A stretch of 64,000 nucleotides of DNA, from contig JBMNLI010000017.1 of assembly GCA_050952645.1 (NCBI GenBank), forward strand, positions 224,001 to 288,000. Direction: 5' to 3'. Position numbers and translations under genes: made by a program. The DNA is from Bdellovibrionota bacterium (lineage in GTDB: Bacteria > Bdellovibrionota_C > UBA2361 > CAKMMH01). The notes below the pieces were generated by a model, which was not told where the DNA came from, searched no databases, and saw only the letters and a program-made list of their open reading frames with translations. Positions 32,380 to 41,575 of this stretch are shown here, piece after piece (within the stretch, counting starts at the first letter, position 1; each line of letters begins with the position of its first letter).

Positions 32380-32673
32380 TCACTTCTTAGAAACTACGAG
32401 CTTATTTAACTTAGCACTGCTACATTTTTTGTCTTTATTTTCATCGATATATTGGTCTAATACATTAAGCTCTTGTCCACTTTCTAAAGGAGAACTAGCG
32501 GCAACCTTATTTTCTTCTAATATTTGTAAATATATTTCTTCTCTATATATTTTATAATTATAAGGCGCATCTACACCTATTCTTGCCTGACTCCCCTTTA
32601 CATCGAGGACGATAATCTTTATATCATCACCAACAAAAATACTTTCACCAGCTTTTCTCGTTAATATAAGCAT
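32380..32673 (-). CDS. csrA: Carbon storage regulator CsrA with C-terminal extension
   Basis: [25 protein letters not shown]; the extension is typical of FliW-controlled CsrA. Confidence 0.96.
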
Positions 32674-36103: not shown

Positions 36104-36967
36104 ATGACTATAAATATTAGAACGAATGTCGCATCATTAGTATCGCAAAGAAACTTAGATAGTAGCACAGCGAGTATAAACTCTGCTTATGAAAGATTAT
36201 CATCGGGTCTTAGAATTAACCATGCTAGAGACGATGCTGCAGGTCTTGCAATTGCAGAGAGTTTAAAAGCTGATGCAAAAGTTGCATCCGTTGGTATTAG
36301 AAATGCAAACGATGGCATCTCTATTATTTCTATTGCCGACCAGGCGATAGGACAAATCGGAAATGTGCTTAGTAGATTAGCAGAGCTTGCTCAACAATCT
36401 GCAAATGGTGTGTATAGCAATACTCAACGTTCAGCACTAGCAAACGAGTTTGTAGCATTAACATCGGAAATTGAAAGAATTGCCGTAACGACATCATTTA
36501 ACAAATTACAATTATTAAGCGGTGGTGGTGAGGTTGTATTCCAAGTAGGTTTCGATGGAAGTTCAACTTCGCAAGTAAGTTATAAGGGAGTAGCAGCTAC
36601 TCTCGAGGCTCTAGGGCTTGCAGATGAGGGGACATCAAATGTAAATGTTTCCATTATTGCAGATACCGATTTAGCTTCTCAATCTGCTGCGCGTATCGCT
36701 CTAGATGCGATAAATAATGCTATTGCATCTTGTTCGAGAAATAGAGGAACTCTTGGTGCTGCTGAGGCAAGACTAGAGGTTACTATCAGCAACTTACAAG
36801 TTGCGAGAGAAAACTTTAGAGCTGCAGAAAGCCGTATCCGTGATGTTGACGTTGCTTCTGAAGCAGCTGAGCTGACAAGATTAAATATCTTACAACAAGC
36901 AGGTTCAGCAGTGCTTGCACAAGCTAACTCTCAACCTCAATTAGCATTACAATTATTACGTTCATAA
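36104..36967 (+). CDS. fliC: Flagellin, short type
   Basis: RLSSGLRIN.A.DDAAGLAI; AESRIRDVDVASE; LAQAN. Confidence 0.97.
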   Translation: MTINIRTNVASLVSQRNLDSSTASINSAYERLSSGLRINHARDDAAGLAIAESLKADAKVASVGIRNANDGISIISIADQAIGQIGNVLSRLAELAQQSANGVYSNTQRSALANEFVALTSEIERIAVTTSFNKLQLLSGGGEVVFQVGFDGSSTSQVSYKGVAATLEALGLADEGTSNVNVSIIADTDLASQSAARIALDAINNAIASCSRNRGTLGAAEARLEVTISNLQVARENFRAAESRIRDVDVASEAAELTRLNILQQAGSAVLAQANSQPQLALQLLRS

Positions 36968-37031: not shown

Positions 37032-37892
37032 ATGACACTTAATATTAGAACAAATATGCCGTCGGTTACTGCTCAAAAGAATTTAAATGCTACGGGTGGT
37101 AGACTTCAAACTGCTTATGAAAGACTTTCATCTGGATTAAGAATTAACCATGCTCGTGATGATGCTGCTGGTCTTGCTATTGCAGAAAGCTTAAAAGCCG
37201 ATTCAAAAGTTGCTTCAGTTGGTATAAGAAACGCAAACGACGCAATATCAATTATCAACATTACAGATGGAGCGGTAGGACAAATAACGAATGTTCTAAG
37301 TAGACTTAGTGAGCTAGCACAGCAATCTGCTAACGGCGTGTATAGCAATTCACAACGTTCTGCATTACAACTTGAGTTTACGGCATTATTAAGTGAAGTG
37401 GAGCGTATCGCTTATACTACCGAGTTTAACGGACTTAATCTTTTAAGCAACGGCGCTACGGTAACGTTCCAAGTTGGCTTTGATGGTTCTTCTTTATCGC
37501 AAATTAAATATGATGGAGTAGGAGCAACATTACAACACTTAGGACTAGCTCCCGAGGGGACTTCTGTTCATAAGTTCTCTATAACTGGTGATACCCCAGA
37601 GGCTTCTCAGTCTGCCGCAAGAAACGCACTCGATGCGATACAAACTGCTATAGACTCGGTAACTAGAGGAAGAGGTATTTTAGGTTCTGCGGAGTCTAGA
37701 CTAGAAACTACTATTCAAAATCTACAAGTAGCTAGAGAAAACTTTATCGCAGCTGAAAGTAGGATTCGTGATGTCGATGTAGCAGAAGAGGCTGCTAACC
37801 TTGCATCTGCAAATATATTACAACAAGCAGGAACTGCAATTTTAGCTCAAGCTAATTTACAACCACAATTAGCACTTCAATTGCTTCAATAG
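37032..37892 (+). CDS. fliC: Flagellin, short type
   Basis: Same conserved N- and C-terminal flagellin motifs. Confidence 0.97.
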   Translation: MTLNIRTNMPSVTAQKNLNATGGRLQTAYERLSSGLRINHARDDAAGLAIAESLKADSKVASVGIRNANDAISIINITDGAVGQITNVLSRLSELAQQSANGVYSNSQRSALQLEFTALLSEVERIAYTTEFNGLNLLSNGATVTFQVGFDGSSLSQIKYDGVGATLQHLGLAPEGTSVHKFSITGDTPEASQSAARNALDAIQTAIDSVTRGRGILGSAESRLETTIQNLQVARENFIAAESRIRDVDVAEEAANLASANILQQAGTAILAQANLQPQLALQLLQ

Positions 37893-38068: not shown

Positions 38069-38401
38069 CTATCTTAAGAATGCTAATCTTTCTTGTATAT
38101 TTTCATCTTCTGATGATTCTTCATACAGACGTAAATTATTTTGCAAGAACGCAGGATCTAAATCTAATTGAAGTGCAATCCATGCGAAACTAAATGGAAC
38201 CTTTGGGGTAAGCTCGCTAAAGATCCATTGTCTTGCACTTCTTATAACGTGGCGCTCACAACGAGCAGAACCGAAAGCATCACAAATTGCTCTTGATAAA
38301 ACTGCTGCTAATAAATTTCTTTCGGGTTTAATTGAGGAGTGATTATCTTGTGAATCTTGATATTCTGAATCAAAATAATTCGTATATGATAAATTACTCA
38401 T
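38069..38401 (-). CDS. Hypothetical protein
   Basis: AAGGAG RBS; PERNLLAAVLSRAICD...ARQW...PFSFAWI...LDLDP; no function recognised. Confidence 0.75.
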   Translation of the reverse strand: MSNLSYTNYFDSEYQDSQDNHSSIKPERNLLAAVLSRAICDAFGSARCERHVIRSARQWIFSELTPKVPFSFAWIALQLDLDPAFLQNNLRLYEESSEDENIQERLAFLR

Positions 38402-39344
38402 ATTTAATAATCTCCTTATAACTTGAGGTTAATAAGCTATTTATAGCTCTTATGTGTTTTAACTTTTCTTTATCTTTCTTTATATTTCTTTATCAACTTT
38501 TTCGTATTAAATAAAACTCGATATTAAATAAAACAAATTAAATAAAACAAATTAAGTAAAACTTATAAGAAGCTAATTTAATTTTAAAGCAATTTTTTAT
38601 TTATGTTTTTTAAATATATTATTAAAAATATAATGCTTAAAAAACACACTATTCAAAATGTATCGCTTAAAGTTATATTCCTAGACTTAAAATAACCTTA
38701 ACCTATAAAATTCTAAATTTAAATTTTCAAAAATTTAAAATATTTTAAAATTAAAATTAAAAAATGATAAAATTAACTAAATTATTAACTTATAACCTCA
38801 ACTTACAATATACAATTACAGTAAACCAATTCTTAACAAAAATTCGTAATAAATAATTAAAATCTTATAAAAAACAAATAATAACAAATAATTAGGTGGT
38901 GTTACTTTAAGTCAACTAAACTAACACAACCCTATTTTTATAATTTTATTTTAAAATAGTCAAGAAAAATCGGGGAATATTTTAAAAAAACGAAAAACTT
39001 AACTTTTCTATTAAAATTTTCAAAGCAAATTACCTACAATTTAAAGCATAACGCATTGAATTTATTGCAGATTTTCTCTGAAAAGAAAAAACCTTGCAAG
39101 CTTTGCATATAAAACGCTGTTTTATTAGCACATGTAATTATACTTTAATTTTTATAATAATTTTTAAAACAATCTTTTAAATAGTTTTTTAAAAATATAT
39201 TATTGAAAACGTTTTACTTTTTAGATAATTTTGTATATACTTACGCTCGTATTTTAAGTTTATAATTTATATTTTATCACAATCGTTTTAAATTTAATTA
39301 ATTTTTGATTTTAATTTTGATTTTAAATAGAAAGGAATTTTTGA

Positions 39345-39878
39345 ATGAAAAATAAGCTGTTTATTAGCAATTTAGACTTTAGCATAACGCAAGATCAGCT
39401 AGAAGATATTTTTAGTGAAATAGGAAGCTATGTAAGCATCGTTATCGCAACGGATAAAGATGCACGCTCGAGAGGTTTTGCTTTTATAGAAATGAAAGAT
39501 GAAGAAACTGCTCAAAAAGCTATCGATGCTTTAAATAATAAAGAAATAAATGGTCGCCCTATGAAGGTAAATTTTGACCGTGGCAAAAACCAAGACAATA
39601 TAAAAGCAAATGAGAGACAGCGAGGGCAACGCCAAGAGCAATTGCCACCTATTCAAAGAATGCAATTGTTTAAAAAGAAGAAAAAATTAGATCCGTTTAT
39701 AGAGGATCCAAATCTTAAGATTGATTATAGAGATGCTCCTTTGCTTTCCAAGTTCGTTAGTGAGAAAGGAAAAATTCTTTCTAGAAAACTAACTGGCTTA
39801 ACTGCACATAATCAAAGAAAAGTTTCAAAAGCTATAAAGCGTTCTCAAAGTTTAGGACTTATGCCTTATAGCAGTTAG
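39345..39878 (+). CDS. rpsR: RRM RNA-binding domain fused to ribosomal protein S18
   Basis: RNP2 KLFISNL and RNP1 RGFAFIEM, then IDYRD..LL.KFVSEKGKILSRKLTG....QRKVSKAIKRS..LGLMPY. Confidence 0.92.
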   Translation: MKNKLFISNLDFSITQDQLEDIFSEIGSYVSIVIATDKDARSRGFAFIEMKDEETAQKAIDALNNKEINGRPMKVNFDRGKNQDNIKANERQRGQRQEQLPPIQRMQLFKKKKKLDPFIEDPNLKIDYRDAPLLSKFVSEKGKILSRKLTGLTAHNQRKVSKAIKRSQSLGLMPYSS

Positions 39879-39925: not shown

Positions 39926-39970
39926 CAAAAAGGGGAACGTAGTTAAAAAAATTATGTTCCCCTTTTTTTT
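39926..39970 (+). terminator. Intrinsic terminator
   Basis: aaaaaggggaac...gttccccttttttt. Confidence 0.8.
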
Positions 39971-40276: not shown

Positions 40277-41575
40277 CTACTGCCCCGTAACTGCAATAAC
40301 AGACTTCCAAAGATCGCCATCTGCTTTTACTTGTTTCTTTTTACCTACCATCATTTTAAAAGGTATGTTCACAAAATGCTCATTTATAATTCCTACCGCC
40401 ATATTAGTTTTCCCAGTCATAGCAGCATGAACCGCATTTTGCCCGAGTACTAAACAGAATTCCGAATCGGCAGAATTTGCAAGTTGGTTTCTTATAATAT
40501 AGCTAGGGTCGATATATTTTACGGTATGTTCAATATTTTCTTTCGTTAGATACTCTTTAATTTTTTCTTTTAAAAATAACCCAATATCTCCCATCTTTTG
40601 ATTGCCCGATAAATCCTTACCTATCTTCTCTTTATCAAAAAATTTTTGCCCAGCGCCTTCCGCTACAACGATAACGGCGTGTTGCTTATTTAAGAGCCGT
40701 TTTTTTAATTGCTCTAAAAGCCCATTTTTGCCGTCTATATCGAAATCTACCTCAGGAATTAAGCAAAAGTTTACACAACCCGAAGCAAGCGTTACGTGCG
40801 TTGCGATAAATCCAGACTCACGCCCCATAATCTTAACTATGCCAATTCCATTATAAGCAGCTCTCGCTTCAGTGTGAGCCGAATAGACGGCCGTTCTAGC
40901 ATCTCCAACGGCAGTTAAAAATCCAAAACTCCTACTAGTCCAGCATATATCGTTATCGATAGTTTTAGGAACACCAACTATTGAAATTTTTAGTTTTCTT
41001 TCTCTTATTCTTTTTGAAAGAGCCATGCCACCTTTTAAAGTTCCATCTCCTCCGATAACAAATAGTATATTAACCTCATATTTTAATAGAGTATCTATCA
41101 TATCATCTTCATCTTGAGGCCCTCGAGAGGTTCCTAAAATCGTTCCACTTGCATTTGAAATATCTTTTACAGACTCTTCAGTAAGCTCTACTGGCTCATA
41201 CTTAGACGATGAACTTAAGCCCTTAAATCCATACATAAAACCTAAAACTTTTTTTACTTTATAATGTTTTAAAGCCGTTATGCTTACCGCCTGAATAACA
41301 TCGTTAAGCCCAGGGCAAAGCCCCCCACAAGTTACTATCCCACATATAGTATTTTTAGGATCGAAATATATTTTTTTTTGCGACCCCGCTTTTTCAAACA
41401 TAGGAATCGCATTTAAAGTTTTTAAGTGGTAATCGAACTCTTCTTTCCTACCATAAATTATTACTCTCTCGCTAGGTGATATAAAATTAGCCTTTTTAGG
41501 ATCTAAAGGCGATTTTATCTTACATTCTCCTAAAACTTCTATTTCTGTATCTTTAATGTTTTTAATTTTTTCCAT
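40277..41575 (-). CDS. pfkA: ATP-dependent 6-phosphofructokinase, long form
   Basis: TCGGLCPGLN, GTILGTSRG, GGDGT, PKTIDND, MGRESG, KYIDPSY. Confidence 0.93.
   Translation of the reverse strand: MEKIKNIKDTEIEVLGECKIKSPLDPKKANFISPSERVIIYGRKEEFDYHLKTLNAIPMFEKAGSQKKIYFDPKNTICGIVTCGGLCPGLNDVIQAVSITALKHYKVKKVLGFMYGFKGLSSSSKYEPVELTEESVKDISNASGTILGTSRGPQDEDDMIDTLLKYEVNILFVIGGDGTLKGGMALSKRIRERKLKISIVGVPKTIDNDICWTSRSFGFLTAVGDARTAVYSAHTEARAAYNGIGIVKIMGRESGFIATHVTLASGCVNFCLIPEVDFDIDGKNGLLEQLKKRLLNKQHAVIVVAEGAGQKFFDKEKIGKDLSGNQKMGDIGLFLKEKIKEYLTKENIEHTVKYIDPSYIIRNQLANSADSEFCLVLGQNAVHAAMTGKTNMAVGIINEHFVNIPFKMMVGKKKQVKADGDLWKSVIAVTGQ

Follow-up and report, generated by a model that had tools for sequence, protein, structure and literature searches.

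The S18 gene of this Bdellovibrionota genome encodes an RRM domain joined in frame to a complete ribosomal protein S18. The gene lies in a stretch of 64,000 nucleotides, here called the window, from an assembly of 1.95 Mb in 17 contigs that is 93.75% complete. On sequence evidence we infer that the fusion is the organism's only bS18, and we predict that it is built into every 30S subunit. A folded RNA-binding domain has apparently been added here to a core ribosomal protein and become fixed across the phylum, without a description in print, and the ribosomes of these bacteria probably all have an additional arm for gripping RNA next to the site of mRNA loading. To our knowledge, bacterial core ribosomal proteins rarely gain whole folded domains; here an RRM appears to have been gained at the site of mRNA capture and of the Shine-Dalgarno (SD) helix, in the only S18 gene, and to have been kept across the phylum.

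The fusion is a single uninterrupted ORF of 177 aa plus stop with an ATG start (table 1). The original prediction had described an RRM, a linker and a full cysteine-free S18 in one frame, and the ORF, Pfam and NCBIfam results bore this out. The Pfam family RRM_1 (PF00076) matched residues 5-73 (E 1.5e-23, 82.9 bits against a cut-off of 20.7) and Ribosomal_S18 (PF01084) matched residues 123-173 (E 8.6e-22, 77.4 bits against a cut-off of 21), while the NCBIfam S18 equivalog TIGR00165 covered residues 110-175 (71 bits against a cut-off of 38.75). The curated cut-offs of both TIGR00165 and PF01084 were thus exceeded, which places the protein in bS18. Residues 104-175 aligned with residues 4-75 of the 81-aa S18 chain 5myj_AR (E 1.1e-15). 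This alignment indicates that the S18 part is complete and that the RRM and linker are joined exactly at the S18 N-terminus.

Table 1. Features of the fusion gene and its surroundings, in window positions.
Feature	Position	Strand	Basis or remark
Conserved neighbour protein, 110 aa	38069..38401	-	divergent, upstream of the S18 gene
Divergent intergenic region, 943 bp, 17-19% GC, short A/T tandem repeats	38402..39344		sequence
Promoter-like TTTACT-17-TATACT	39213..39241	+	consensus match only, ~100 nt ahead of ATG
Shine-Dalgarno-like AAAGGA	39331..39336	+	read from sequence, 8 nt ahead of ATG
RRM-bS18 fusion CDS	39345..39878	+	ORF list, Pfam and NCBIfam domains, sole S18 match in genome
RRM domain, residues 1-80	39345..39584	+	RRM_1 match, AF2 fold, Foldseek, conserved aromatics
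Variable Gln/Arg/Gly-rich linker, residues 81-103	39585..39653	+	low pLDDT, divergence across 32 relatives
Complete bS18, residues 104-177: basic N-terminal tail (LPPIQRMQLFKKKKKLDPF) and core	39654..39875	+	5myj_AR alignment, TIGR00165, pLDDT
Terminator-like hairpin, with T run to 39977	39927..39967	+	49 nt past the stop codon

The junction between the two domains is supported by other assemblies. The linker, singled out earlier for verification, lies wholly inside a contig (39550-39798) of X3, an independent public run, that shows 0 differences and 0 gaps, and a second X3 contig spans 39322-39568, again with 0 differences. Gap-free cover on the S18 side comes from an X4 contig (39617-39837) and an X8 contig (39652-39807); the X2 contigs at the fusion gene are two short partial pieces only. 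The runs in which this DNA was found, among them X3, X4 and X8 that support the fused frame, are all DNA; a listing of such runs gave no RNA run.

Relatives share this arrangement. Both domains lay in one stop-free frame in 40/41 genomes of the order, the exception (G031, 85% complete) having no S18 match at all, and 95 of the 96 genomes of the class that are at least 85% complete gave a match. A search at the level of the phylum yielded genomes of the same class only; among its 78 genomes of at least 90% completeness the fusion was intact in 75, S18 being cut by a contig end in G043 and having no match in G094. Taken with the independent contigs, the stop-free fused frame in 75 of 78 related genomes rules out an assembly chimera or two genes, and nowhere in those 75 did we see a stop with a separate start between the domains, the arrangement that had been named as fatal to the original prediction.

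One lineage has a different form. Genome G045 (92% complete) encodes a 107-aa S18 without the RRM, in which the linker that elsewhere follows the RRM and the PMGYF...KKKKK tail are retained, and this short type is present in two sources; the family mates G046 and G047 are fused. Judged by its sequence, the short S18 is a secondary deletion of the RRM, so the RRM would be dispensable at least in that lineage.

We then compared the parts of the protein in an alignment of 32 fused sequences. The RRM contains RNP2 (LFISNL) and RNP1 (RGFAFIEM), and the start codon stands immediately ahead of RNP2 in all 32. Conservation was at least 90% at F6 of RNP2 and at F45 and F47 of RNP1, which, following the RNP1/RNP2 definitions, we take to be the canonical RNA-stacking aromatic residues. 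Mean pairwise identity was 51% in the RRM, 21% in the linker, 53% in the S18 tail and 63% in the S18 core. These identities, together with the conserved aromatics, indicate that the RRM is under purifying selection and that the linker, which is Gly/Ser/Arg/Gln-rich and 15-54 aa long across the 32 relatives, is free to vary.

In the AF2 model the pLDDT was 75-89 across the RRM and 87-96 across the S18 core and fell under 50 at residues 83-96. The modelled RRM has the secondary structure beta-alpha-beta-beta-alpha-beta (E4-10, H16-26, E29-35, E44-50, H53-63, E74-77), and the top Foldseek hits of this domain were all RRMs, including the bacterial 7qzp (TM 0.89, rmsd 1.5) and chloroplast cS22. Because the pTM is 0.41 and the linker pLDDT lies below 50, the model assigns no fixed arrangement to the two domains, and the linker is modelled as a disordered tether. 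With a net charge of -4 to 0 and a pI of about 5, the RRM is mildly acidic; the S18 part is strongly basic (+9 to +14). An RRM so charged should not be a strong unspecific RNA binder by itself.

PF01084 matched only once in the 93.75%-complete genome, in the fusion gene. A canonical rpsR near rpsF had been suggested as something to look for, and none is there: rpsF, encoding S6, is on another contig (C12) with rplI directly next to it and neither ssb nor rpsR between. The usual operon rpsF-(ssb/priB)-rpsR-rplI, a context that is typical of bS18 and not family-defining, is therefore absent. Compared with canonical bS18 (rpsR; 5myj_AR, 7nhk_s), the fusion has a complete S18 in residues 104-177, as the sole copy and with an S6 partner present, but it has ~100 extra N-terminal residues and its gene stands outside that operon. 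Since no second S18 was found here and nearly every relative gave a single S18 hit, the fusion is expected in all ribosomes and not in a subset.

The genes flanking the fusion gene are on the opposite strand, so it looks monocistronic, as had been claimed; the terminator-like hairpin behind it has, in our scan, 18 pairs, 5 of them G-C, followed by the T run TTTATTCTTT. The length of the intergenic region, first put at 940 bp, also agreed with our measurement (table 1). A promoter-like block, GTTTTACTTTT...TATATACT, is kept in three aligned family relatives, and the DNA upstream of the fusion gene is alignable within the family only.

Initiation in this genome was surveyed in 855 ORFs, each 150 aa or longer and with an ATG as its first start no more than 12 codons from the upstream stop. 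GGAG, GAGG or AGGA was found at -20 to -3 in 37.7% of them; the corresponding figures were 4.8% for a control window and 11% within genes. The genome-wide SD signal peaked at -14 to -11. SD pairing is in use, although this rough count finds it in fewer than half of the genes. The 3' end of the 16S rRNA is the canonical GGAUCACCUCCUUU, the anti-SD is canonical, and at 1523 nt on a model of 1533 positions the 16S has an ordinary length. Leaders of 854 genes are 80-88% A+U at -60 to -1. S21, a six-domain S1 and S6 are all present, as is CsrA; a search of the genome for Hfq did not find it. We considered the RRM as a substitute for S1 or S21 and rejected this, both proteins being present. In 200-kb samples, the SD frequency was 28% in the RRM-less G045 (n=88) and 29% in the fused G047 (n=63), small samples with crude start calls; values this close do not connect the RRM with SD usage in this small natural experiment.

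Several known systems resemble the fusion in part. The nearest functional analogy is chloroplast bS18c, whose N-terminal extension, in the excerpted text of the source, enters the platform cavity with an mRNA contact predicted (bioRxiv 10.64898/2026.07.03.736309). Both are lineage-specific N-terminal additions to bS18. The excerpt, however, describes that extension as low-complexity basic/aromatic heptads of about 19-55 residues, whereas the fusion has a whole folded RRM on a tether, and its linker shows no heptad repeat. The chloroplast protein cS22/PSRP2 (5x8p_v, 5mmj_v) is a ribosome-resident RRM protein of the same fold and is matched in sequence by the fusion (E 3.9e-20). It is nevertheless, as far as the excerpted descriptions go, a separate two-RRM protein at the 30S foot, at h6/h10 and far from S18; the single RRM fused to S18 sets our protein apart from this type.

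Free bacterial RRM proteins, such as cyanobacterial Rbp1-3 and 7qzp of A. baumannii, have the same type of domain, and NF058537 (Rbp_regulator) matched the fusion at E 6.6e-23 with 80.8 bits, under its cut-off of 100. In the excerpt of one report, Rbp3 co-purifies with ribosomes and binds mRNAs (PMC12232666). Such proteins are free and their association reversible, while the RRM of the fusion, from its sequence, would sit covalently at a defined ribosomal site and in defined stoichiometry. In Bacteroidia, according to excerpts of two reports, a bS21/bS18/bS6 pocket sequesters the anti-SD (PMC7797042, PMC9976891). This, too, is a lineage-specific change in the neighbourhood of S18 that concerns handling of the 16S 3' tail and initiation. 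As excerpted, it differs in having no added domain and in occurring in genomes without SD motifs, whereas the genome here has a clear SD signal. The anti-SD is canonical here, but the excess of SD-like motifs at the 855 starts speaks against sequestration of the Bacteroidia type.

Our preferred reading, which we hold with about as much belief as doubt, is that the tethered RRM, a second mRNA-capture arm beside S1, binds ssRNA on the platform of the 30S, with the A/U-rich leader as its likeliest target. The N-terminal tail of bS18 would hold the RRM on its disordered tether of 15-54 residues at the platform, and from this tail, near the SD-antiSD helix, the RRM could reach the mRNA exit and standby region. 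There it would take hold of the mRNA by its A/U-rich leader, immediately upstream of the SD and start region, mRNA being the presumed ligand over rRNA, and this capture may help initiation. The position of the RRM is an extrapolation, because the location of S18 comes from E. coli and Thermus structures. In the excerpted text of one source, the SD-antiSD duplex occupies a cleft made up of 16S elements, S11 and S18, and S18's N-terminal tail, which is basic, touches the duplex (PMC4611024); an excerpt on the E. coli 30S-RNAP complex describes S1, S2, S18 and S21 as surrounding the opening at the 16S 3' end (PMC5655137).

The reading of the RRM as an mRNA-capture arm is favoured by the sole S18, the phylum-wide fusion, the conserved RNP aromatics and the disordered linker, by the published position of the S18 tail on the duplex, as far as excerpted, and by A+U-rich leaders in a genome where Hfq was not found. 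Other observations point the other way. With a six-domain S1 and S21 present, there is no obvious gap at the platform to fill; G045 deleted the RRM while keeping the linker and S18; the SD-motif frequency does not differ with and without the RRM in the two genomes compared; and the mildly acidic RRM is not expected to grip RNA strongly and unspecifically by itself. Of the earlier interpretation, the part that placed a tethered RRM at the platform thus fits the only-S18 status, the aromatics, the linker and the S18 tail site, while the part that invoked specialised ribosomes found no support. If the RRM does bind mRNA leaders, nature would have run, in this phylum, the experiment of anchoring an RNA-binding protein on the ribosome, and the effect of platform proteins on start-site choice would become testable outside model organisms, beside the Bacteroidia and chloroplast cases.

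The ligand of the RRM could instead be rRNA, either the pyrimidine-rich 16S 3' tail with the anti-SD or a nearby platform helix, which would make the RRM a structural clamp or an anti-SD gate. This is possible but not favoured, and we consider it unlikely. The RRMs of cS22, which is among the best PDB sequence matches of the fusion, bind 16S h6 and h10 in the excerpted descriptions, the Bacteroidia proteins bS21, bS18 and bS6 sequester the anti-SD, again as excerpted, and the origin of the tether would adjoin the 16S 3' end, whose sequence CACCUCCUUU is a plausible RRM ligand. However, SD motifs are in use, so the anti-SD cannot be permanently hidden, and nothing in the ordinary length of the 16S points to an added helix that the RRM could hold. 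The highly variable linker, for its part, suits a roving arm better than a fixed contact.

Next to the fusion gene lies a conserved small protein that bears on another alternative. Its family, about 108-110 aa in size, is present in 78/78 phylum genomes, and when the coordinates of both genes were combined it stood directly upstream of the S18 gene in 64/76. The arrangement is always divergent in the order of the window (50/57 genomes) and always tandem in the other orders (14/19). In the alignment the columns average 78% identity, and 41 of them are invariant, C39, C47 and H50 among these. Pfam, NCBIfam and PHROG gave no family match, with a weak Imm5_like signal (best E 0.0035) in 15/25 members, and among PDB sequences there was no relative. 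All 348 database relatives are called "hypothetical" and have organism labels like those of the relatives of the fusion; no longer or fused forms were found, and the AF2 model is all-helical at low confidence (pLDDT 52). By sequence and gene order, this appears to be a newly noticed conserved protein linked to the S18 gene across the phylum. A phylum-universal small protein so tightly linked is a second, unexplored lead.

The RRM might serve chiefly as a docking or regulatory module whose target is not the translated mRNA but the neighbour protein, RNAP, a platform decay enzyme or its own mRNA (extraribosomal autoregulation), a proposal that we also think doubtful. In its favour are the presence and position of the neighbour just described and, in E. 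coli, the contact of S18 residues F10, F13, V40 and I44 with the RNAP beta-flap, as excerpted from PMC5655137. The fusion gene has, moreover, left the rpsF operon, and the known S6:S18 leader RNA, looked for before rpsF and rpsR, was not found, so the gene needs some other control. Against this, the RNA-stacking aromatics are conserved, whereas protein-binding RRM variants usually lack them, and in the RRM-less G045 the small protein still adjoins S18. Autoregulation through a structured leader is likewise without support from Rfam, upstream alignment or 5' UTR folding: at gathering level Rfam had no match around the fusion gene or around rpsF, the rows being chance-level eukaryotic snoRNA and miRNA; upstream DNA is conserved within the family only; and the putative 5' UTR folds no better than shuffles (z = +1.0).

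The neighbour could also be combined with mRNA capture. We regard it as speculative, and rather improbable, that the RRM and the ~108-aa Cys/His neighbour form a lineage-specific initiation module that chooses A/U-rich leaders in parallel to SD-antiSD pairing. The neighbour would then be, with similarly slim prospects, a partner or regulator of RRM-bS18 in a phylum-wide rebuilt mRNA-loading platform. If such a module existed, it would amount to a naturally occurring, permanent wiring of an RNA-binding protein to the ribosome.

The RRM may otherwise have no role in translation and act in cis as an assembly aid, shielding or delivering the basic S18 or folding the 16S central domain. An acidic RRM beside a strongly basic S18 part would suit such a function, as would the fact that S18 enters the 30S as a heterodimer with S6. 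We consider it quite unlikely, since S6 is a separate ordinary gene, charge shielding needs no conservation of the RNP aromatics, and AF2 leaves the RRM undocked on S18 with a disordered linker.

It is very improbable that translation mostly begins inside the gene, at the ancestral S18 Met, M107 (QRMQLF), and yields a short, canonical S18, with the long form a minor or separate product. An in-frame Met does occupy the ancestral S18 start in 22/32 fused sequences, and NCBI has truncated gene calls, at 72 aa and 143 aa, that cluster with full-length proteins. The other 10/32, however, have T, V, L or I in place of this Met, and of the 22 that keep it only 2 show an SD-like motif ahead of it; the gene of the window shows none. 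The stop-free frame kept across the 75 genomes also argues against an internal start, and the sole lineage with a short S18 arose by deletion of the RRM DNA. Hardly credible, finally, is the original alternative of a second, Zn-independent S18 paralogue marking a subset of specialised ribosomes: cysteine is absent from the translated S18 part, itself an ordinary condition for S18, and the gene is outside the rpsF operon, but no second, Cys-motif S18 gene paired with the fusion was found in the 93.75%-complete genome, the S18 matches listed in relatives are the fused gene, one per genome, and a copy missed in the unassembled 6%, while possible for this genome alone, cannot explain 75 genomes.

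The fusion is widespread in databases under an ordinary name. A protein search returned 435 relatives at E<=1e-10, and the 120 listed all have both Pfam domains, the RRM_1 plus Ribosomal_S18 architecture for which a search had been proposed. The only name among these listed relatives is "30S ribosomal protein S18", and the organisms given for them include Oligoflexia, Bdellovibrionales and Deltaproteobacteria bacterium. A full-text literature search, with subscription journals outside its scope, found no description of an RRM-S18 fusion. The original remark that the architecture was not described therefore agrees with the papers searched and needs qualifying for the databases, which hold hundreds of copies labelled plain S18. 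This label and the 72-aa clipped calls hide the RRM. In a library of 1.84 billion representatives, eukaryotic multi-RRM proteins dominated the matches, with 3 fused proteins among the best 150, and a scan of genome contigs gave 2 close relatives. The genome itself encodes a second, free RRM protein of 121 aa with an RG-rich tail.

The small gene beside the RRM-S18 fusion, whose product matched no Pfam, NCBIfam or PHROG family, is present in all 78 phylum genomes (at least 90% complete); in 64 of 76 genomes it is the immediate upstream neighbour of the S18 gene. The two genes are divergent in the order to which the window's genome belongs and tandem in other orders. In the window, the divergent intergenic region between them is unusually long, and several short tandem repeats of A/T lie within it, for example three copies of ATTAAATAAAACAA. 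Relatives in the same order keep a long gap at this place, of about 240-1450 bp.

Features of the S18 neighbourhood and related loci (G000, the window's own genome; G045, a related genome; C, contig; coordinates after an L number count within that locus)
Feature	Location	Strand	Remarks
CsrA homologue	window about 32521-32673 (C17:256521-256673)	-	80.5 bits
Tandem flagellin genes	window 36104-36967, 37032-37892	+	Flagellin_N + Flagellin_C
Small protein, unknown family	window 38069-38401	-	110 aa; invariant C39, C47, H50
Divergent intergenic region	window 38402-39344		943 bp, 17-19% GC
Phosphofructokinase (PFK family)	window 40277-41575	-	432 aa; convergent with S18 gene
Free single-RRM protein	L003:1348-1713 (G000:C7)	-	121 aa
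rpsF, then directly rplI	L004:1495-2666 (G000:C12)		
S18 without RRM	L020:1342-1665 (G045:C117)		107 aa

At the rpsF locus of the window's genome, which has pth and an L25-like gene on its upstream side, neither ssb/priB nor rpsR separates rpsF from rplI. The same genome encodes a free RRM protein with a tail rich in Arg, Gly and His; it shares about 35% identity with the fused RRM, and the six-domain rpsA is located about 8 kb from its gene.

Some NCBI gene calls for RRM-S18 proteins (in the clusters of the proteins at loci L016 and L029) are truncated: they span 72 aa or 143 aa and begin at internal Met codons, so that the RRM is hidden in public annotation. In G045, the RRM itself is gone, but what is left of the linker and the small gene upstream are retained. 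Since its family mates G046 and G047 carry S18 fused to RRM, this absence is a secondary deletion. G045 and G047, both assigned to one family, differ greatly in G+C content (37% versus 57% in 200-kb samples, L051-L070).

A search of the whole 93.75%-complete genome found no Hfq; the CsrA homologue is located in the flagellar neighbourhood. The flagellin pair is found a short distance upstream of the gene for the small protein, and the phosphofructokinase neighbour of the S18 gene is also retained in the related genome G003 (L008, L019).
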